From the NCBI GenBank assembly GCA_027858345.1, contig JAQICX010000252.1, forward strand, positions 5,297-69,296: a stretch of 64,000 nucleotides of DNA. The letters are read 5' to 3'. The translations under genes were made by a program, and so were the position numbers. Origin of the DNA: Kiritimatiellia bacterium (lineage in GTDB: Bacteria; Verrucomicrobiota; Kiritimatiellia; JAQICX01). This document shows positions 14,338 to 26,380 of the stretch, piece by piece. Under the pieces are notes generated by a model. The model did no database searches, had not been told where the DNA came from, and saw nothing but the letters and a program-made list of their open reading frames with translations. Each line of letters starts with the position of its first letter. Position 1 is the first letter of the stretch.

Positions 14338-15048
14338 TCAATGCTGTAGTTGAAGAAGTTCTGTTTTAATAGAAATATAAAGATTTGATACCCATATTGG
14401 AGCATAAATGAAATCATCAGGCAATTCTTGCTTACGAAAATCTATTGGAGTTAGAATAACGGATATGTTATCAATTCCTGTTTCTGCTGACATAACAAAC
14501 AGCTCTTCAATCGCTTCATTTCCCATGGCAAGACATCCAATAGAACAATTGCTGCCATGTATCATTATATCAGAACCAAGGTTATTACGATATTCAATTT
14601 GTGCTTTCTCAATATCAAAGGAATTAGGATAGTTTAAGCGGAGAGCCAGATGAAACATACTGTTGGGGTTAAGAGACTCTACTTTATAAAATCCTTCTGG
14701 CACCTGTTTGTCTCCCTCTTTGAGTTTGTGACCAAGTTTGCCACTAGCTCCCAAAATGGAGTATGATTTAAGAAAAACAGGAGGTTGGGAAACCCAAACT
14801 TCAAGTTTTTTATCCTGCTTGATACCAACCAATACAATGTTCTGAGGAGGATAATCAACGCCAATTCGCTCGAAATCAGGGGTAATGCGTTCATGGACTA
14901 TTGAACCAAATTGCTCAATACGTTCCGCAACAGTTTTATTCCCCCTTAAATTTTGTACTTTCGCATATATATCTTTGTGGCATTTTAAAAGCACAAGCCC
15001 AACTACAGTAATAGCCACAAGAAAAATGTAAACACTTTTAATTTTCAT
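14338..15048 (-). CDS. L,D-transpeptidase (YkuD-fold)
   Basis: N-terminal TM anchor. Catalytic 'IMIHGSNCSIGCLAMGN' (His/Cys motif of LD-TPases). Confidence 0.7.
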   Translation of the reverse strand: MKIKSVYIFLVAITVVGLVLLKCHKDIYAKVQNLRGNKTVAERIEQFGSIVHERITPDFERIGVDYPPQNIVLVGIKQDKKLEVWVSQPPVFLKSYSILGASGKLGHKLKEGDKQVPEGFYKVESLNPNSMFHLALRLNYPNSFDIEKAQIEYRNNLGSDIMIHGSNCSIGCLAMGNEAIEELFVMSAETGIDNISVILTPIDFRKQELPDDFIYAPIWVSNLYISIKTELLQLQH

Positions 15049-15703
15049 TCTCTATGTTTATTGAGCTTTTCATATTCTTTTTTGTCAAAATAATAAAATC
15101 TTTTAGTAACGACTTGTATTGGGGATGATTTATTTGCTTTAAAATTATTTCAGCTTGATCAGGTCTATCAATATAGCACCATGCACTTGCCTCTATCATT
15201 ATAAGAGTTTCTTTTAGTGTTGTACCTTCGTATGGAGTATAAAGCTTAACAATTCCCTTACAAACAGAATCTTGTTGTTTTTCGACAAGAACAAAATCAA
15301 TGTTTTTTCGGGCTTCTTGTGCCAATTTGATCTGAGTAAGGTGTTCGCCTGTATTACCATATTGCAAAACTTTGTAAAATTTTGCAATTTGTGCCTCCCA
15401 GGATTTTTGGTCATTTTTCAAAATATCATCGCATATTTTGAATGGTTCCTGTACTTTCTGTTTGTTCATGTTTGTTGTATCTTGACAAATTAAATATGTT
15501 GCAAGCGTAATTTTAACCTTTCTTAAATCATTGCTTGTAAGATTAGCATTGGATACATTTGTTCTTAATAATTGTATCGTTTTAGGGTTATTCCATTTGT
15601 TTGTAGAATTCAAATCATCCTCTACAATGCTAAAAACATTTTCTTTCGCAAAACAAGTAATTAAAGCTATTAAGTTAATAGCAACCATAAGTTTAACTTT
15701 CAT
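15038..15703 (-). CDS. secreted hypothetical protein (signal peptide ...CFAKE)
   Basis: ORF with a cleavable signal peptide. A J1-junction remnant (KTHESATNAYFRLDFDENNIKLW) lies immediately upstream at 15704-15798. Confidence 0.5.
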   Translation of the reverse strand: MKVKLMVAINLIALITCFAKENVFSIVEDDLNSTNKWNNPKTIQLLRTNVSNANLTSNDLRKVKITLATYLICQDTTNMNKQKVQEPFKICDDILKNDQKSWEAQIAKFYKVLQYGNTGEHLTQIKLAQEARKNIDFVLVEKQQDSVCKGIVKLYTPYEGTTLKETLIMIEASAWCYIDRPDQAEIILKQINHPQYKSLLKDFIILTKKNMKSSINIENEN

Positions 15704-15798
15704 CTTACCAATTTCCTTTCTCTACTTCTGTCCAAAGTTTAATGTTGTTCTCATCAAAATCTAATCTAAAATATGCATTAGTTGCCGACTCATGAGTT
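15704..15798 (-). pseudogene. orphan remnant of the conserved J1 junction of the large secreted-protein family
   Basis: Minus-strand translation gives 'KTHESATNAYFRLDFDENNIKLWTEVEKGNW*'. This matches 'VKTHESATNAFFRLEFDENKLNIWTKDS' of 22328..25528 and 16444..17505. Confidence 0.55.
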
Positions 15799-16428
15799 TT
15801 AATCAGCGCTATCTTTACTTAGAATTGTTGAAATTCTTTTATTTAACAGATTCAAGTCTTGGGTATAAGAAGAATCACCTTTTTGGGGTAAACTATGCAG
15901 TCCATATCTCTTTGCATAATTGAGTTCGACAATCTGAAGTCCTATCGGAGACATTTTCTTGTTAGACTTTGCATCAGGAAGTAAAAGCTTAACTAAACTA
16001 CAATTATTCGTCCAACTAATAATACCATAACCTTTGTTCTTTTCAACATTAATACCAGCAGGAGTTCCATACTTTTCAAATGTCTCACGCACAACATATG
16101 TTTGTTCTTCTTCCGAACTTGTATGTTCCTGTGTATAAATCACAGATATAAGTTTATTAGTACTAAAAAGGTAAATAGCCTTGTCAAAGAGATTAGTACT
16201 ATACTTTTCGACAAGCCCTCCTTGAGGCTTATTTTTATCAGGCTTTGTATTTACAATATCTAGACCTACGTTAAAGACTTCGGCATTTGGATGGTTTTCC
16301 ACAAACGTTTTCCAATCCATTCCAATCTGAACATGATATACTGTATCAGGAATTATGTTTTTATTATCTTCTTTGGCAAATAATGCTATAGCACATGTCA
16401 TTAAACTTATAATTACGATCTTTTTCAT
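15799..16428 (-). CDS. secreted hypothetical protein (candidate partner/immunity for the 353 aa module)
   Basis: Signal peptide 'MKKIVIISLMTCAIALFAKED'. It sits directly downstream of the 353 aa alternative C-terminal module. Confidence 0.5.
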   Translation of the reverse strand: MKKIVIISLMTCAIALFAKEDNKNIIPDTVYHVQIGMDWKTFVENHPNAEVFNVGLDIVNTKPDKNKPQGGLVEKYSTNLFDKAIYLFSTNKLISVIYTQEHTSSEEEQTYVVRETFEKYGTPAGINVEKNKGYGIISWTNNCSLVKLLLPDAKSNKKMSPIGLQIVELNYAKRYGLHSLPQKGDSSYTQDLNLLNKRISTILSKDSAD

Positions 16429-16443
16429 TTTATTATATCCTTA

Positions 16444-17505
16444 CTATTTATTTGATGGTTGTAACATTCCTGCTCTACCAATATTGTTTAAATCATCTAA
16501 TATTAACAAATCACCTAAGTCCAATAATTGAATAATTTCAGTTTCAATCTGAACTCTTGTGGTAGCACCATTCTCAACAATAGTACGACCTGTCAAATTA
16601 TTGTTTAAATCCATAACTGTTTCATTATGCGGGTTACCATTAAAAATTCCTGTTCTTTCATGAGCATCTGCTAGTCCTTGAGCATCTTCGGAATTCCAGT
16701 CTAAAGTCATTATTGCATTCCAATAAGCATGCCTTGCAGCATCTGCTCGACCATTATGAATTCCTCCTCCTAAACCTGTTAGATTTACTTGAGCCCAGAG
16801 TACTGCTTCATCTCTTAATTGATCAACGGTTAAACTACGGACAGGATGGCTAATACACCATGCAATCTCACCTTCTCCTACCGACAAATTAAATACAAAT
16901 AGTTTTGCAAAACAGTTGGTCATTTCTGCGACTTCAACCTGTTCCGTCTGTAAACCTGATGTCCAACAATAAATATTTATATCCTTACCTGTACCAGACT
17001 TCATTCCTGACCAGATATAATATTCGGCAGGAAGTTCTACTTCCATTTCAACATCTAGCTCAACATCGTCTTCTTGTAGAACACCAATACTTTTATAGGA
17101 ATTTACAGTTGCAGGGTCAATGAGTTTTGAGCTTGACATATCATCAGTCTTAAAATACAGCTCTGGTGATATCCAAAATAAAATCTCAAAATCATTCGTC
17201 CACAAATCAGTATTATCAAGAACATAAGTTACATCAATATCATGCTCTCCTGCCTCAATCCCCTGAACAAAATAGGTTTGCTCGGCACCATCAGAAAACA
17301 GATCATCATAAGAGTAATTATGATACGCCTGAATAAGGTTGCCATTTGGAATATATGAATTCGTTCTTGTTATCATAGCATTACTGTCTTTTGTCCAAAT
17401 TTTTATTTTTGTTTCATCAAACTCTAATCTGAAGAAGGCATTTGTTGCACTCTCATGAGTTTTGACTAAGATTGGCATAAAATCCAGCCATGTGCAGTTC
17501 CCCAT
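16444..17505 (-). CDS. alternative C-terminal module of the large secreted-protein family (begins at the J1 junction, then diverges)
   Basis: The first 95 aa ('FMPILVKTHESATNAFFRLEFDETKIKIWTKDSNAMITRTNSYIPNGN...AYHNYSYDD') are about 80% identical to the mid-region of 22328..25528. The remaining 250 aa are unrelated (ending '...RHAYWNAIMTLDW...'). Confidence 0.6.
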   Translation of the reverse strand: MGNCTWLDFMPILVKTHESATNAFFRLEFDETKIKIWTKDSNAMITRTNSYIPNGNLIQAYHNYSYDDLFSDGAEQTYFVQGIEAGEHDIDVTYVLDNTDLWTNDFEILFWISPELYFKTDDMSSSKLIDPATVNSYKSIGVLQEDDVELDVEMEVELPAEYYIWSGMKSGTGKDINIYCWTSGLQTEQVEVAEMTNCFAKLFVFNLSVGEGEIAWCISHPVRSLTVDQLRDEAVLWAQVNLTGLGGGIHNGRADAARHAYWNAIMTLDWNSEDAQGLADAHERTGIFNGNPHNETVMDLNNNLTGRTIVENGATTRVQIETEIIQLLDLGDLLILDDLNNIGRAGMLQPSNK

Positions 17506-17760
17506 CGACAGATATACTGCCTACCCCTGCAATAAACTCAAGATCAGCAGTTCCACCTACTAGAGCCGAATACGATCCAGCTTTTAATTCAACTTCAATA
17601 AGATCATTTTCATTTGCACCAGTTTCGGAGTCTCCAGTCTCCATTCACACTGATTCCCGCACCAGGACCTTCTTCCAGATCATCGGGGATTTCATGCTTC
17701 TGAAATGGGCTTCCATATCCAGGAACTTCAGTCTGAGGACGGTAAGCTTTTAGGTCTACT
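17453..17760 (-). pseudogene. frameshifted fragment of the J2 junction ('..AYRPQTEVPGYGSPFQKH..GDSETGANENDLIEVELK..GGTADLEF')
   Basis: Homologous to residues 740-800 of the 1066 aa protein. There is an internal 'gagactggagact' duplication, and the fragment is fused out of frame onto the start of 16444..17505. Confidence 0.55.
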
Positions 17761-17788
17761 TTCGGAACAATGATTTTCCCTTCTTTAT

Positions 17789-18271
17789 CTAAGCAATAAA
17801 TACCATACCAAGAATTATCAGTTCAATAATTCCTATTAATAACAGCATAGCATTAATTATTGTGTGCATTCTGCATTTTTTTCTAATACTAGCAATATAA
17901 TTCCAAGATGTAGATGCAATAATAAAGGTGGCAAAAACACCAACAAGTATCACTTGTAGACCGTCAGGCAAGCAACCATATAATATTTGCATTGCATCGG
18001 GACCAAAAAAAAGAACTAGCAAAAAAACAGAAAGAATAAATTCCCAAAATGGCCAACGTGGATTACTATTAGCAACAAGAAAAAAACCTGAAATAAAGCT
18101 TACAATACTAACCGTAAATGCCGGACCACCAACTAAAAACAAAGCAAGTAACATTGCCCATCCCCCCGTTGGCCTAACATCTCCACTGATTAAAAATATA
18201 GCATACTTGGCAATTAACATGGACAAAGTTACAGCAACTATGCACACAGACATATGAATTAATTTTTTCAT
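17789..18271 (-). CDS. small polytopic membrane protein (about 5 TM)
   Basis: 160 aa, strongly hydrophobic with about 5 predicted helices. It is embedded in the cassette array. Confidence 0.5.
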   Translation of the reverse strand: MKKLIHMSVCIVAVTLSMLIAKYAIFLISGDVRPTGGWAMLLALFLVGGPAFTVSIVSFISGFFLVANSNPRWPFWEFILSVFLLVLFFGPDAMQILYGCLPDGLQVILVGVFATFIIASTSWNYIASIRKKCRMHTIINAMLLLIGIIELIILGMVFIA

Positions 18272-18319
18272 TATTATAAAATCCTAAATTTAAAATATAA
18301 CATTCCCTAAAGCAAGTAA

Positions 18320-19201
18320 TTAAGGTATAGTTTCCCATTTTTGAGTCACAAGACCTTGAGTAGTACTTAGCACATAAGAATTAGTACTAGCTTTCAAATG
18401 TCTAATCAGTTCAACATTTATTTTCTGAGGTTTTTCCTTTAGCACCTCGACAACATAAACATCAAGCCACCATTTATCTTTCTTCGAAAGAGCAACAAGA
18501 TCTGAAATGTTTTGCAGTTCAATTCTCTTTTTCACATCTTTAAGTTCTTCGTTATCAGAAAAAAAATGTTCTGAAAGTAGCTTAGCTCCATCTTGCAGGG
18601 AAACGTTATATAGATACCGAATAAAACCTGGTTTAGCTTGAATTTTATGTTTTTCAAGAAGTCGTTTATAGGTTGAAAAATCAGCAGAACCATTCTCATT
18701 ATATGCATGTACCTCACCAAGCCAGTTTTCTGCGATTGAAACATCTACCATGTTTGTACATTCTAAAACAGGTAATAAACCACAAGTAATATCATCCTTA
18801 CTCATTGAAAGTTCACGCATAATAATACCAACAATTAATGGAGATCGAGCATCTTTAGATGTTTGACGAAAAAATAGTAGCTGCCTCATTATCTCTGGAC
18901 CATCATCTGACAGTAAACGTGAAAAAGAGTTTAGTTTTTCTTGAAGTTCTTCTTTAGTGTCAACTGCCAGAAACTCCACATTATTGGATGATACTAAACT
19001 AAGTAAGAGTTCCTGTGCCTCAATATGTGGTTTAATACTTGTGTGATTTTTTTTCTTATTAGGTTCTTGAGCATAAATACATACAGAAAATAAAATAAAG
19101 ACTATAGTTAGCACAGCAATACCAGTAAATCGATTAACGATACAGTTATTGAATTGAATATCAGGTATACCAATTTCATTGTTTTTTACATTTGTGTTCA
19201 T
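18320..19201 (-). CDS. secreted/membrane-anchored helical 'partner' protein, paralog 3 (candidate immunity or foldase)
   Basis: Shares 'QLLFFRQ' and a C-terminal 'KWWLDVYVVEVLKEKPQ' block with 19654..20466 and 21395..22306. It has an N-terminal hydrophobic segment. Confidence 0.55.
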   Translation of the reverse strand: MNTNVKNNEIGIPDIQFNNCIVNRFTGIAVLTIVFILFSVCIYAQEPNKKKNHTSIKPHIEAQELLLSLVSSNNVEFLAVDTKEELQEKLNSFSRLLSDDGPEIMRQLLFFRQTSKDARSPLIVGIIMRELSMSKDDITCGLLPVLECTNMVDVSIAENWLGEVHAYNENGSADFSTYKRLLEKHKIQAKPGFIRYLYNVSLQDGAKLLSEHFFSDNEELKDVKKRIELQNISDLVALSKKDKWWLDVYVVEVLKEKPQKINVELIRHLKASTNSYVLSTTQGLVTQKWETIP

Positions 19202-19208
19202 AATAATT

Positions 19209-19568
19209 TTATCTTTCTATCTTGAGTTTAAGCATACTTGTAGTAGGCGTAAGAACGATTGGGTAATCATCAATGGTGCCATGCGTAACTGATGGAGTTG
19301 GTATATCAACATTCCAACCTAAGTTTTGCCCTGGTGGGTCAGTCGCATCACCAGAAAGTCCCGTAACAGCTGTCTGCCAAAAATTTACATGATATTCACT
19401 CGATGGCGGATATTTTGTTTCGGCATTCACATCAATTTCAGAGTCATTTTCAATAGCATCAATATATGCAGTGAATTTGATTGTAAAAGAGCCTATAGTG
19501 GAGCGATTATCATTAAGTCGCTTTGCAAGATCATATACCGAGCCTCCACCATGACTATAACCAATCAT
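19209..19568 (-). pseudogene. N-terminally truncated alpha/beta-hydrolase (lipase-like) C-terminal module
   Basis: It starts exactly at the 'GYSHGGGSVYDLA' nucleophile-elbow motif and is homologous to the last 120 aa of 22328..25528. No upstream homology remains. Confidence 0.55.
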
Positions 19569-19653
19569 AGCTATTTGATTAACAAACTGGTTTAATACTG
19601 TAGTCTTTCACCCCCCGCGACACCGTGAACTGACATAACAAAAAGCCTGTTTC

Positions 19654-20466
19654 TTATTCAAAGTTTATTTGTTCGTTTTGGATTTTTTGAACCATGTTAC
19701 TGACGATATAATTATTGCTAAGTTCGAATTCTTTAATAATTTCTGGAACTATAAGTTTAGGTTTTTGGCTCATTAACTCCAATATATATAGCTGTATCCA
19801 CCATTCTGTATTATCAGCAAGCACCTTAATCGTTTTGGATTTGTCAGAGTATTTTGTTTTATCCATAAGTGATTTTGCTTTATATTTACTAAAATTGATA
19901 TTTGCAAAGGTTGACAATGCACTCTCTGGTGATGTTGTATACATATATTTTACGAGCTCCATATTTTTTGTATACATATTTTTTTGTATTAGATTCTTAT
20001 AGTGATTAAATTGATATGAATGTTTTTTTTGATCATAGTCAATATTTTCAAGCCATTCGTAAATCTCTGCTTTCATAACATCATTTGTTGTTCCAATATA
20101 CGGAATAATTCCAGCATACTGATCTGTTTTTGAAATATTTAATTGTTCCATAATATATAATGGCAACAATTTCTCCATTTCATTATTAGCATTCACCTTG
20201 AAAAATAGTAATTGTGCAATAAACTCTGAATTCCCTCCTGATTCTTCTTTAAAATCATTTAGTTTTGCTTTAAGTACAAACTCTGATGTTATTCCATCTG
20301 GAAATAATTTCTGTCTTTCTAATAAATTTGTTGAACTCAACATTTGCAAAAAACATTGGACTTGTTCGTTTGGATTAATTACTTGATTCTTTACTTTTAT
20401 TTGTTCTTCTGCATTTCCAAAAGATATAATCATAATAGTTCCCAATAAAATTAATTTTTTATACAT
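19654..20466 (-). CDS. secreted helical 'partner' protein, paralog 2
   Basis: Signal peptide. Shares the 'IAQLLFFKV' and C-terminal 'EWWIQLYILELMSQKPKL' blocks with its paralogs. Confidence 0.55.
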   Translation of the reverse strand: MYKKLILLGTIMIISFGNAEEQIKVKNQVINPNEQVQCFLQMLSSTNLLERQKLFPDGITSEFVLKAKLNDFKEESGGNSEFIAQLLFFKVNANNEMEKLLPLYIMEQLNISKTDQYAGIIPYIGTTNDVMKAEIYEWLENIDYDQKKHSYQFNHYKNLIQKNMYTKNMELVKYMYTTSPESALSTFANINFSKYKAKSLMDKTKYSDKSKTIKVLADNTEWWIQLYILELMSQKPKLIVPEIIKEFELSNNYIVSNMVQKIQNEQINFE

Positions 20467-20485
20467 TGTTTTTCTTCCTTTAATA

Positions 20486-21398
20486 TTATTTTGTAATTAC
20501 GGACATAAGCTGTCCCTCTATACCGTTTAAAACAACAGGCAAATCATCTATAGTCATGTGTGTACACGTTTGTTGTGCCGCATCAATATTCACTTCTGCC
20601 GGATCTCCTAAAGCCGGATTAGCGATCAACCCTCCATCTAGTCCGTAATCAAACCAGTCACTCAAAGGATTTGCTACACCTTCCTGATAATACGTAACAT
20701 GATATTGAGACCCAGGAGGTCGTCTGTTTTCTTGCGATGATGATACTTGAGTAACAGCATCTATATATCCAGTAAAGCCAATAGAAAACGTACCAATTGC
20801 TGACCTATTAGTATTCAAGCGTTCGGCGAGATCATGGGTGGAGCCGCCTCCATGGCTATATCCAAAAATAGCAACATTTGAAATATTTCTCATTTGTATA
20901 GCGTTTACAATCTCATCATAGACTTGCCCGTCCCCATTGTTCTGTACATTATCTTCTCCATACATATGAACATCATAACCTTGCGAAAACAGATCAACAG
21001 CTAAGTTAAAAGTTCCTTCATTTGGAGCTGCTGGATCAATAGGATTGTCCTGAGATTCTCCCCCTAAAGCAATTACAATACTTGTAAATGGATAAAAATG
21101 AATTTTGTCCGACTCAACATCTATACTGCCTACCCTTGCAATAAACTCAAGATCAAGCAGTGCCGCCTGCTGGATTTTCCACCCATACTGTTTTCGTGTC
21201 ACTGCTGAATGTTACTGTTGCCTCTGTTCCTGAATCTAATATGGCATTCCCCATACTCTGGCTGTCCCACACCTTGATATTTGTGTTATTGCGTTTAAGC
21301 ACATAGGTCAAGCCTGCTGGAGCAGGATACGGTTCGGCTTTTAATTCAACTTCAATAAGATCATTTTCATTTGCACCAGTTTCGGTATCTCCATTCAC
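20486..21398 (-). pseudogene. orphan J2 + alpha/beta-hydrolase C-terminal module, frameshifted by a 1 bp insertion near 21160
   Basis: ORFs 21153..21398 and 20486..21202 together are collinear with residues 765-1066 of 22328..25528 (about 60-70% identity). The 'GYSHGGGSTHDLA' motif is retained. Confidence 0.6.
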
Positions 21399-22306
21399 TC
21401 TGATTCCTGCACCGGGATCTTACTTTTGTTTTCATACTTATTGTTTTTCTCAATTTCATGAACAACATCAAGAACAGCAGTATTATCACTCTTTTTTAAT
21501 TGTTTCATTAATTCAGGAGTGCTAAGCTCTGGATTCTTTTTAATCTTCTCGGCAACATAAAGTTGTATCCACCATTCTGGACGTTTTGAAAAGTTAGAAA
21601 GAGCATTAGTAACATTTGTATTAATAGGAGGTAAAGGTTTTGATAATCGATGCTTTTTTGCTTTAGAGTCACTGCGTATTATTTCAGCAGATTCTATTAA
21701 GTTAGTTTTTGCCTTATCGTTGTCATTAACAAGAGAGAGAATTAGTGATTTAAGAGCTTCATCCGGAAGACCACTATACATGTACTCAATTAGAGCTTTA
21801 GGCGGATCGTATTTCCGTGCCGTTAGGTAAGCTTCAAATGGCTGGTAGTATCCTTCTGCAATCTTACTATTTCCTCGTATTCCATCAAGAATTTCTCTTG
21901 TCTCATCATAAACAGTGGGATTATCAGTTTCTAAATACATAGCAACTGCCTCTATAATGTTAGTGTCAGAAACAGATTTAATTAAAAAAGATCCAATAAT
22001 CATTGTTGCATGATATTTTTTTTCATCTTTTATAATAGTAACACGATACAAAATTAGTTGCGGAATAATTTCAGCAATATTCGACTGTGTGCTTTTTAAT
22101 TTTTCAATAGATTTCATAACATCTTCCTCTGATGCTTGCTTTTTCCAATGGCGTAGCAAAATGGAAGTAGTCTGCTCAAACTGTTCTTGTACTTCGGGTT
22201 CAGCAACAAGCTGTTTTCCATCTTTATTTATTTGTTCTGCATTTGCTACGTGTAAAAGACACATAAACAAAACAATTTCTATTATCAATCTTACTTTTGT
22301 TTTCAT
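21395..22306 (-). CDS. secreted helical 'partner' protein, paralog 1
   Basis: Signal peptide 'LIIEIVLFMCLLHVANA'. The C-terminal block is 'EWWIQLYVAEKIKKNPEL'. Its stop codon overlaps the start of the downstream orphan module. Confidence 0.55.
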   Translation of the reverse strand: MKTKVRLIIEIVLFMCLLHVANAEQINKDGKQLVAEPEVQEQFEQTTSILLRHWKKQASEEDVMKSIEKLKSTQSNIAEIIPQLILYRVTIIKDEKKYHATMIIGSFLIKSVSDTNIIEAVAMYLETDNPTVYDETREILDGIRGNSKIAEGYYQPFEAYLTARKYDPPKALIEYMYSGLPDEALKSLILSLVNDNDKAKTNLIESAEIIRSDSKAKKHRLSKPLPPINTNVTNALSNFSKRPEWWIQLYVAEKIKKNPELSTPELMKQLKKSDNTAVLDVVHEIEKNNKYENKSKIPVQESE

Positions 22307-22327
22307 ACTTATTCTTTCCTTTTATAT

Positions 22328-25300
22328 TTACGGATTAACATGTCCTATAAGTTGATTTATAACACCATTTATAACATTTAGATGGTCATCTATGTTGCCA
22401 TGTTCCAAGTTTGCCCCCCATGCCGTCGTTGTAACATCTAGTTCAAAATCTGCCCCTGGAACAGGTCCACCACCCAATTCAAGAACTCCATTATTTTGAT
22501 AATAATTTCCAAGAAAAGCAGTACCTGGAGGCCTTCTATTTTCCTGTTCCGCAAGTGGCTGCTTAACGGCATCAATATAAGCCGCATAAGTAATAGTATA
22601 CTCGTGGTTATTAAGATTCACAGCCAGATCATATGTAGACCCACCTCCATGGCTGTAGCCAAAAACTGCAATCTGTGTAACATTTCGATTGTTAACAGCG
22701 TTTTCAACTTCTTCATAAGCAACTCCTCCCCGATCTTCAGAGGCAACAACATCCTCATTGTACATATGAACGTCATAGCCCTGTTGATAAAGATCTATTG
22801 CAATCTCGAATGTACCATGATTACCTGGATCATTAACAGGATCATCTGGATTCTGCCCTTCACCACCCAACACAATAACTACACTTGTAAACGGATAAAA
22901 ATGAATTTTGTCCGAGTCGACATCTATACTGCCTACCCTTGCAACAAACTCAAGATCAGCTGTGCCACCATCTGGATTCTCAACCCATACTGTTTTAGTA
23001 TCACTGCTGAATGTTACTGTTGCTTCTGTTCCTGAATCTAATATAGCATTCCCCATACTCTGGCTGTCCCATACCTTGATATTTGTGTTATTGCGTTTAA
23101 GTATATATGCTAAGCCTGCTGGAGCAGGATATGACTCAATTTTTAATTCAACTTCAATAAAATCATTTTCATTTGCACCAGTTTCAGTATCTCCATTCAC
23201 TCTAATTCCTGTACCTGGATTTTCTTCCTGATCATCAGGAACTGCATGTTTCTGGAATGGATTTCCATAACCAACACCTTCAGTCTGCGGACGGTATGCT
23301 GTCATGCCTATCGAAATAAAACTAAAACTAACATCCTCTGAATCCAATTCATAATTATCTAGCAAATATGTAATTCCAACACTATGCACCCCCGGCTGAA
23401 GACCTTGAACATAAAGTGTTTTCTCCGCTCCTTCTTCAAAAATATCATCATAAGAATAATTATGATATGCCTGAAGTCGATTGCCATTAGGAATATATGA
23501 ATTTGTTCTTGTTATCATTGCGTTACTGTCTTTTGTCCAGATGTTTAGTTTGTTTTCATCAAACTCTAATCTAAAGAAGGCATTTGTTGCACTCTCGTGA
23601 GTTTTGACTAAGAATGGCATAAAATCTCCAGCATTGTCAAGGTCATTAACATTATTTGTGCCGTCGTTGTCAGCATCTTCAAGTCCGGTAAACATGGAGA
23701 TATTGTCAGATTGGTTTGAAACAACAAGAGCACAGGAGGTAAGAGAATAAGATGCTGAATGATATTCGTCACCACTAAACTCCAGATCAACAATCATATC
23801 TCCTAAATCATCGCTACAGCCTATGACTGAGAAACCTTCACTGGTTGAATAAGGAGACTCCTCAATATCAATTTCCCGAGATATGTCGCCTAATGTAAAA
23901 ATATCAGTATTCCCATCAGGTGTAATATCCAATGTTCCATTAAGACCATAATTTGCACACACGCTGTGCAAAAAATCTATATTAACAGACGCATTAGGTG
24001 AATTTAAAATATTGATTACATTTTCCGGACACATCTCAGAATCAATTATCCATGTTCCATGACTGTAAGCAACATAGATGGATACATCAATATCATCGGA
24101 ATCGGGTTCCATCTTTTCCTCTGTAGCCTCAACTGAAATATTATATTGGTAATACCCAGCATGATCAAGGGTTGTCAGACTGTCAACGCCCGTATCCAAC
24201 GAAAAAGAAGCATACTTAAAGGCATCCTGCAGTCCAATAATTGGACTGCCAATAATTGTACTGCCGAAATCAATTGTATCCACGTCACTGTCCTGTTGAA
24301 AAACAGAACCGCTTCCTGTGGCAGTGCAAGTTATTGGTTCTGGATTAAAAATATATGGTGTTGTGCCATACAATAAAGCCGGACTACCTATACTTACTTT
24401 TGCATTAACGTTCAGATCGCCATACAAATTGTTACATCCACACAAAATATAATAATAATAACCATCATATAATGAACCTATATCAACTGTCATTGTCGGT
24501 ATGTAAAACGAAACATCTACTCCTCCTCCACCAGCAGTTGTTTCCATCGTCAGGGGTGAAGAGGTTGTAGTCATCGTCAAAGGTGAAGTAGAACTGCTTG
24601 ATTCTTTAAATTGGCTATTCCCAAGATAAGGATAATACCAACCATAACACGTGATTACCCAAGGATCCATTGTATACACTCTAAAGGCAACATCAGATTC
24701 CGTAAGTTCAGGAGAATAATTTGACTCAACTTCAAGATTTCTAGACAACTCGACATTCAACGGTTGTCCTATAGAACAAATTTTATTCGTAAATAATATA
24801 TTATTTGTATATGATGTGAGGAAGATATTGGTTGAACTACTCCCCATGATCATTAACATATAATCATTATCATCCACTGCAGATAGCTCCATGATACAAT
24901 TAACCACTGTCTCTGCATACTCATTGTTGCTATCTAATGGGTCAGTATGATTAAAATGAACTTCGTCATAGTCATTTGTACTATCTCCGTCTGTATCAAA
25001 CAACCATGGATTTGTTCCATATTGCATTTCTTCAGCATTATTAAGTTCATCTTCGTCAGGATCTCCAAACAAAGATTCTCCTTCAAAAGAGTTGGAAACA
25101 CATGGATTGAAGTTTGTATACATGACTTCAAAAAGATCTGGCAGCTTATCACCATCTGAGTCAAATAGTTTGGCATTCAACCGTTCGATACCATTAGTTG
25201 AAATTGAATTTGTGCAGTAATATTCAAAATTGTTTGATAGACCATCATTATCCCAGTCTGGCGGGGTATAAGCCTTAGGATCAAAACCATAATAAATTTC

Positions 25301-25528
25301 AACAATATCATAAGTACCATCACCATCTGTATCTGAATTAGTGATGCTAGTTCCATACAGTAGAGTTTCTCGACCATCGCTTATTCCATCACCATCTGTA
25401 TCATACAAAGTCCAGCATGTATAAAACCTTGAAGTATCATTGGTAGCATTATAGTCCACCCATGTGTAAACATTAGTTGAAAGATCTACTTCTTCTGTAT
25501 CCTCAATAAACCAATTCCTGTTGACCAA
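22328..25528 (-). CDS. large multidomain protein: TSP3-type Ca-binding repeats, Ser/Thr/Cys-rich middle, J1 and J2 junction motifs, C-terminal alpha/beta-hydrolase (GxSxG lipase/esterase-like) domain
   Basis: It has many 'DTDGDG..D', 'DSDGDKLPD' and 'DTDGDSTNDYDE' aspartate repeats, and a 'FGYSHGGGSTYDLA' nucleophile elbow near the C-terminus. The ORF opens at a TTG immediately after two stop codons. Confidence 0.7.
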   Translation of the reverse strand: MVNRNWFIEDTEEVDLSTNVYTWVDYNATNDTSRFYTCWTLYDTDGDGISDGRETLLYGTSITNSDTDGDGTYDIVEIYYGFDPKAYTPPDWDNDGLSNNFEYYCTNSISTNGIERLNAKLFDSDGDKLPDLFEVMYTNFNPCVSNSFEGESLFGDPDEDELNNAEEMQYGTNPWLFDTDGDSTNDYDEVHFNHTDPLDSNNEYAETVVNCIMELSAVDDNDYMLMIMGSSSTNIFLTSYTNNILFTNKICSIGQPLNVELSRNLEVESNYSPELTESDVAFRVYTMDPWVITCYGWYYPYLGNSQFKESSSSTSPLTMTTTSSPLTMETTAGGGGVDVSFYIPTMTVDIGSLYDGYYYYILCGCNNLYGDLNVNAKVSIGSPALLYGTTPYIFNPEPITCTATGSGSVFQQDSDVDTIDFGSTIIGSPIIGLQDAFKYASFSLDTGVDSLTTLDHAGYYQYNISVEATEEKMEPDSDDIDVSIYVAYSHGTWIIDSEMCPENVINILNSPNASVNIDFLHSVCANYGLNGTLDITPDGNTDIFTLGDISREIDIEESPYSTSEGFSVIGCSDDLGDMIVDLEFSGDEYHSASYSLTSCALVVSNQSDNISMFTGLEDADNDGTNNVNDLDNAGDFMPFLVKTHESATNAFFRLEFDENKLNIWTKDSNAMITRTNSYIPNGNRLQAYHNYSYDDIFEEGAEKTLYVQGLQPGVHSVGITYLLDNYELDSEDVSFSFISIGMTAYRPQTEGVGYGNPFQKHAVPDDQEENPGTGIRVNGDTETGANENDFIEVELKIESYPAPAGLAYILKRNNTNIKVWDSQSMGNAILDSGTEATVTFSSDTKTVWVENPDGGTADLEFVARVGSIDVDSDKIHFYPFTSVVIVLGGEGQNPDDPVNDPGNHGTFEIAIDLYQQGYDVHMYNEDVVASEDRGGVAYEEVENAVNNRNVTQIAVFGYSHGGGSTYDLAVNLNNHEYTITYAAYIDAVKQPLAEQENRRPPGTAFLGNYYQNNGVLELGGGPVPGADFELDVTTTAWGANLEHGNIDDHLNVINGVINQLIGHVNP

Positions 25529-26355
25529 ATCAGTACATACAAAAAATCTAGTTCGTCATCAGAAAGTGTAGCTTCTCCCCATTCAACAGTAAGTTGTACA
25601 CCATTTGTCAGTTGGTTCACGGCAGAGAATCTAAGATTACTTACAACACTTGAACTTCTCATTGCCATAGGTATGCTGAATATAAACAGTTCATCTAAGT
25701 CAGGCTGTGACTGCTCCCAGACATATGCCATTAGATCGTCTTCTCCAACAATCAAATCATAACGCATAACAATTCGTGAAGGATCATAACATGCCAACAA
25801 CCAATCCTGCTGATCTTGTTCTTTCTCTGAAAAATCAAAAAGTTCATTAAAGACAAACCAGTCAGGAGAATAGTTGATCTCTCTGTCAAAAGATATTAGT
25901 TCTTTACCATCTTTATTGGCAATTACAACTTTGGAATCATCCGAATTTTCATATACCCATACTGGATAAGTGCGAACTCCATCTTTCTCTTCGGCAACAA
26001 GTCCTGCAAGGAAACTGTAATCAAACCCCTTATAATTAAGAAGTGCAATTGGTCTGCCTTTCTGATAAAGAGGTACACTTGGATCAGGAGGTGCAACCCA
26101 TAAATATTGATATTGATCATCAAGATACCTGGTTGCAAGGTCTTCAACATTTAAAACTTGATTAGTCTCAAAATTATAATATGCTCTGTAATCATATATC
26201 AGTTTTTTTTCTAAAACACAGGTAGATGCGTTAAGAATAAAATTGGAAAGAATTAGTAACAGGACAAAGATGATTTTGTTTTTCATTGGAATAACATCCT
26301 TACTTATAGTTTGTGTAAAAGTTGCTATTTTACATACTTTAGCAAATATACACAA
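25486..26355 (-). CDS. secreted protein with Sec signal peptide; possibly the frameshift-separated N-terminus of 22328..25528
   Basis: An internal start 'MKNKIIFVLLLILSNFILNAS' gives a good signal peptide. The ORF ends 43 bp inside the start of the next ORF, in a different frame. Confidence 0.5.
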   Translation of the reverse strand: MCIFAKVCKIATFTQTISKDVIPMKNKIIFVLLLILSNFILNASTCVLEKKLIYDYRAYYNFETNQVLNVEDLATRYLDDQYQYLWVAPPDPSVPLYQKGRPIALLNYKGFDYSFLAGLVAEEKDGVRTYPVWVYENSDDSKVVIANKDGKELISFDREINYSPDWFVFNELFDFSEKEQDQQDWLLACYDPSRIVMRYDLIVGEDDLMAYVWEQSQPDLDELFIFSIPMAMRSSSVVSNLRFSAVNQLTNGVQLTVEWGEATLSDDELDFLYVLIWSTGIGLLRIQKK

Positions 26356-26380
26356 GAAAAAATCACAAAAACTATAGTCC

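Follow-up and report, generated by a model that had tools for sequence, protein, structure and literature searches.

The window, a 64,000-nt stretch of contig JAQICX010000252.1 from a Kiritimatiellia bacterium, carries a disrupted, putative toxin gene and, 3' of it, an array of partial C-terminal modules and small genes. All features described here lie on the minus strand. Every element that a preliminary description of the sequence had named exists on that strand, at or very near the coordinates it gave. Several glycoside hydrolases are encoded in the same window.

The main gene (22328..26355, from its ORFs and an alignment to the homolog P0007) is split by a frameshift. Its N-terminal part is a 289-aa ORF (25486..26355), which carries the signal peptide MKNKIIFVLLLILSNFILNAS and probably begins at the ATG at 26286. 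The remainder is a 1066-aa ORF (22328..25528; NCBI PF692_15690). This ORF, which is real, had been taken for the full-length gene, of which the 289-aa ORF is also a part. Relative to the intact frame, a T6 run at 25541..25546 (...LDFFVCTDLVNRNW...) lacks one base, and the merged protein aligns unbroken across the frameshift with P0007 residues 206-378 (E 8e-15). This continuous alignment shows that the two ORFs are one gene. An independent assembly, L026, has the same T-run break and also lacks 25171-25199 (a 29-nt deletion). Thus, the main gene is a pseudogene in this population.

The gene, frameshifted in this strain, appears to encode a secreted protein of several domains with a trafficking signal at its N-terminus. 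Its ancestral product would have been a Sec-exported protein of ~1,320 residues, comprising, in order, a signal peptide and N-terminal beta-sandwich, TSP3 repeats, a conserved central region, the J1 domain, and an exchangeable C-terminal effector. Approximately six TSP3-type calcium-binding repeats (DxDxDGxxD) occupy 24971..25402. These repeats, noted in the preliminary description, exceed the Pfam TSP3_bac threshold in homologs but stay below it in the window protein (16.8 bits; cut-off 25 bits); the region also has a partial NCBIfam CglD match (1e-9). The N-terminal domain is unlike that of the closest homologs, whose conserved upstream gene is absent here.

The C-terminus of the main gene is a two-domain hydrolase module. 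Its N-terminal domain, J2 (22919..23317), is Ig-like in an AF2 model with a pLDDT of 94, and Foldseek matches it to PAD4/PAD3, a likeness to the N-terminal domains of peptidylarginine deiminases. The alpha/beta-hydrolase domain (22331..22918) has conserved GYS959HGG, D986, and H1043. Across the hydrolase family, the GYSHGGG nucleophile elbow is invariant and the Asp and His are conserved too, which, with the confident alpha/beta-hydrolase model, supports the predicted Ser-Asp-His triad. The earlier label of lipase therefore holds as far as an alpha/beta-hydrolase with conserved Ser/Asp/His, while lipase identity is not established. Profile searches of the kind first suggested assign this hydrolase to no Pfam family and find DUF6973 within a 353-aa module further downstream. 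The J2-hydrolase module also occurs on the trunks of P0007 (LVIVD+TSP3) and L007, and, in other phyla, as a stand-alone secreted protein with a signal peptide. Whether stand-alone or on any of these trunks, it always has a partner homolog as the next gene. The hydrolase family and its HEAT-repeat partner are widespread in Acidobacteria, Planctomycetes, and others.

Three small genes of the array encode exported, HEAT-like partner proteins. Partner 1 (303 aa; 21395..22306) is the putative cognate immunity protein of the full-length hydrolase; its model is all-alpha (pLDDT 89), and 10 of the 33 members of its family have a HEAT_2 match. Partners 2 (270 aa; 19654..20466) and 3 (293 aa; 18320..19201) are intact, and partner 2 is 36.5% identical to the partner encoded with the L008 stand-alone hydrolase. 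As had been proposed, the three are paralogs (23-28% identity, E 2e-8 to 4e-21), and they match no housekeeping family. The suggestion that they resemble Tli or Lif proteins was not borne out: a fold search recovers a generic HEAT solenoid (Z <= 8.6) and no Lif similarity, and the Pfam Lipase_chap scaffold that marks Lif was not found in them.

The hydrolase modules downstream of the main gene are degraded, and intact partner genes adjoin them. Orphan module 2 (20486..21421) retains the 3' two-thirds of J2 and a complete hydrolase domain, and is split into 81-aa and 238-aa ORFs by a 1-nt indel near 21155, a split also seen in L026. Directly ahead of its J2 lies a recombination scar (21417..21446) that supplies the last ~14 residues of the 303-aa ORF and is a 97% copy of 22288-22317, where partner 1 has its RBS region and first codons. 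Orphan module 3 (19209..19568) lacks its N-terminal half, and only hydrolase sequence from the GYSHGG elbow onward remains. Like the main gene, modules 2 and 3 are pseudogenes in this strain. A further J2 remnant with the first hydrolase residues, left by an internal deletion, was recognized from repeat families at 17505..17758, abutting orphan module 4. Between partner 3 and this remnant, a 160-aa polytopic membrane protein (17789..18271) has no adjacent module, no homolog in related loci, and no match outside the window; it may be an orphan immunity gene.

Orphan cassettes and the full-length gene share a common homology region. Nucleotide comparison within the window pairs 23345-23626 with 17203-17484 (282 nt, 81% identity) and 22958-23223 with 21156-21421 (266 nt, 89% identity). 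It also finds 23115-23198 repeated at both 21313-21396 and 17556-17639, and 23530-23605 at 15725-15800. These repeats are far above chance expectation and include exact matches of 23-29 nt between copies. At the protein level, the 1066-aa ORF is related to the 81-aa ORF (93% identity, E 4e-47), the 238-aa ORF (50%, E 2e-56), the N-terminus of the 353-aa ORF (71%, E 6e-46), and the 119-aa fragment (34%, E 1e-11).

The DUF6973 cassette is intact. Orphan module 4 (353 aa; 16444..17505) consists of J1 and a C-terminal region with DUF6973 at residues 215-326 (16528-16863; Pfam 1.5e-18), and is 72% identical to a 335-aa module in L002. Its cognate, exported partner 4 (209 aa; 15799..16428) is 83% identical to the gene at the same position in L002. 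Beyond it, ~27 codons of J1 (15726..15806) are the sole residue of a module whose L002 counterpart has 442 aa. This module is otherwise deleted, leaving partner 5 (221 aa; 15038..15703), an exported, orphan immunity-type gene that is 61% identical to the 211-aa gene 3' of the 442-aa module. The orphan partner genes are under purifying selection; dN/dS is 0.26 for partner 4 and 0.25 for partner 5, with 0.41 for the 353-aa module. Between the window and L002, the cassette is 73-83% identical and the trunks 51%; dS for the cassette is 0.3-0.4 vs. ~1.06 for the trunk pair of the window and L001. The cassette is thus probably mobile. An E. coli Rhs protein ends in DUF6973 too (RHS core at residues 128-164, DUF6973 at 272-338, 44.8 bits), and the product of the next gene there, YdcD, likewise has an N-terminal hydrophobic segment. 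Putative toxin domains of the locus are thus also found in another polymorphic toxin family (DUF6973) or joined to different trunks (the hydrolase module).

J1 is the true junction of the locus. It is a conserved beta-sandwich (23318..23626, from an alignment of homologs) with the pattern LVKTHEsATsA.FR..FD...IW...RTNS...YVQGL..G.H...V.Y.LD. The preliminary description had taken J2 for a junction; it is instead the N-terminal domain of the hydrolase module. J1 opens every orphan module, and homologs diverge completely 3' of it: the proteins of the window, L001, L002, and L005 are 51-63% identical as far as J1 and unrelated beyond. The trunk common to relatives comprises the TSP3 repeats, the central region, and J1. 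Approximately 15 unrelated C-terminal types follow J1 among ~20 related loci, a narrow sample that covers a few metagenomes and a single Victivallales MAG. Each locus has one to five J1 copies, each heading a different C-terminus and then a small ORF. The array also lies at a different chromosomal site in a relative with an 84% identical SHMT. The comparison proposed beforehand thus shows that related loci differ in the number, order, and type of modules, which favors the original reading. We consider it likely that this is a chromosomal polymorphic toxin/immunity locus, in the sense of PMC4436062 and PMC3482391, that falls under no known family.

Tips and their downstream partners co-vary. 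Where tips are at least 60% identical between loci, the next genes are homologous in all six pairings, which represent six tip types (tip/partner identities of 79/83, 75/68, 70/38, 69/48, 64/54, and 60/26%). Downstream ORFs are homologous where tips are alike, and the partner is usually more diverged than the tip. An N-terminal hydrophobic export signal is present in 25 of the 28 downstream ORFs, the three exceptions not being genuine partners. This pattern bears on whether the partners could instead be Lif-type foldases, each folding the secreted lipase encoded ahead of it in the periplasm rather than inhibiting it. The gene order recalls LipA-Lif operons, in which a secreted hydrolase gene precedes a gene for an exported helical protein; here the partner is all-alpha, and the order is kept even for stand-alone copies in other phyla. 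However, unlike LipA-Lif, unrelated non-hydrolase modules (DUF6973, PAD, and ~12 others) have their own unrelated exported partners, and intact partners persist beside truncated or frameshifted hydrolase modules, and a further one with no module at all. We regard a foldase array as highly improbable.

The tips themselves mostly escape recognition. Profile searches of the ~20 loci find no recognizable toxin domain in most C-terminal types, and Pfam toxin and pre-toxin families have no match in the trunk, in J1, or in most tips. This would suit a surface or secreted protein that is no weapon, its cassettes diversifying an adhesin or exo-enzyme tip to vary antigens or substrates and the small genes being accessory. 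Adhesins and surface proteins often contain TSP3 repeats and beta-sandwich domains, and antigenic variation also uses silent-cassette recombination. Such a role is nevertheless improbable: those tips that can be recognized are enzymes, not binding domains (hydrolases, PAD, and a weak, sub-threshold transglutaminase-like match), an Rhs toxin carries one of the tips, tip and exported partner co-vary strictly one-to-one, and purifying selection maintains the orphan partner genes.

No secretion or delivery machinery linked to the locus was found among the window ORFs. In agreement with the preliminary description, Rhs, CdiA, T6SS, and T7SS markers are absent from the locus proteins and from other window ORFs of at least 150 aa. 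With a Sec signal as the only export feature, the tips might be exo-enzymes against non-bacterial targets or nutrient polymers, such as membranes of a host or other eukaryote or detritus, the partners inhibitors that protect the producer during export, and the whole without a role in bacterial competition. The glycoside hydrolase genes of the window would fit, as would the description of Kiritimatiellae as polymer degraders in PMC7356697. Yet only a threat from neighbors would explain orphan immunity-type genes that lack a cognate enzyme, and high tip diversity with cassette turnover is a signature of antagonistic co-evolution between strains (PMC4436062). We therefore also rate this explanation as improbable.

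For a polymorphic toxin/immunity locus, we infer toxicity, neutralization, substrate, target cell, and passage across outer membranes alike. The effector, an Ig-like domain with a Ser-(Asp)-His alpha/beta-hydrolase, would attack an ester of the cell envelope, for example in a membrane lipid, and the exported HEAT-repeat protein encoded next would bind and block it in the periplasm. The downstream cassettes would be older effector/partner pairs that recombination in J1/J2 has displaced: a pair of decayed hydrolase modules with intact partners, a lone membrane protein, the intact J1-DUF6973 module with its partner, and a partner whose module has been cut to 27 codons of J1. Because the main gene is broken by the 1-nt change, and in the sister assembly by the 29-nt deletion too, the locus would now be mainly a bank of immunity genes and spare cassettes. 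More tentatively, and with some doubt on our part, the trunk (TSP3 repeats, central region, and J1) could be a previously unrecognized delivery platform of the PVC group. It would bring envelope-targeting enzymes into neighboring diderm cells without a T5SS, T6SS, or T7SS, with J1 serving as recombination hotspot and as release or translocation module, and the ~15 tips without a Pfam match would, with their partners, represent new toxin/immunity families.

Polymorphic toxins are among the chief means by which bacteria compete, yet almost nothing is known of them in Kiritimatiellota and Lentisphaerota, which degrade polymers and are abundant in anoxic marine and gut habitats. The loci offer a compact set of ~15 uncharacterized putative effector domains, each with a putative cognate exported inhibitor and apparently aimed at the envelope. 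They add a new, Pfam-less alpha/beta-hydrolase family with a putative HEAT-repeat inhibitor, and DUF6973 gains functional context from its terminal place in the E. coli Rhs protein. They also raise the question of how a Sec-only protein reaches a neighbor's periplasm.

Among known systems, Tle/Tli pairs are T6SS-exported lipases (GxSxG or HxKxxxxD) with phospholipase activity and their periplasmic immunity proteins. The present locus has a GYSHG motif, a predicted alpha/beta-hydrolase fold, and an apparently exported partner. No sequence relationship to Tle1-5 was detected by Pfam or a PDB sequence search, the hydrolase domain here is much smaller (~200 aa), the partner is a HEAT solenoid, and the window holds no T6SS gene.

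The array resembles CdiA-CT/CdiI and Rhs-CT/RhsI orphan arrays in that unrelated C-termini lie beyond a conserved demarcation region and displaced CT/immunity pairs keep a homology region; the DUF6973 tip is common to this locus and the E. coli Rhs protein. Pfam and NCBIfam searches of the proteins and their neighbors found none of the CdiA features (TPS, FHA repeats, CdiB, VENN/(Q/E)LYN motif). YD repeats, RHS core, and PAAR/VgrG are likewise absent here; in the E. coli protein, by comparison, the RHS core is easily picked up. The junction also differs, being a folded domain of ~100 aa and not a short motif.

Several ingredients of the locus have precedents. Zhang et al. (2012; PMC3482391) already list Sec-signal-only ("T2SS/Sec-only") polymorphic toxins, an ImmHEAT immunity family, and a lipase-like Tox-ABhydrolase-1 toxin domain, and record polymorphic toxins in Verrucomicrobia and Lentisphaerae; neither "thrombospondin" nor "arginine deiminase" occurs in the text available. 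MafB/MafI of pathogenic Neisseria offer a further parallel. MafB has a Sec signal, a conserved N-terminus, and a variable C-terminal toxin, with the immunity gene directly downstream, and maf islands hold numerous orphan CT/immunity cassettes and no linked dedicated T5/T6/T7 machinery (PMC4436062). The present locus matches it in Sec signal, variable tip, downstream partner, orphan cassettes, and lack of linked T5/T6/T7 genes. It differs in that DUF1020 was not found (Pfam and NCBIfam for the window protein, Pfam for homologs), every partner is exported, the trunk is approximately four times longer and carries TSP3 repeats and the J1 beta-sandwich, and the host belongs to the PVC group instead of Neisseria. 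The locus probably represents a new family within a known type of system; it is built on a backbone not described before and has partly decayed in this strain.

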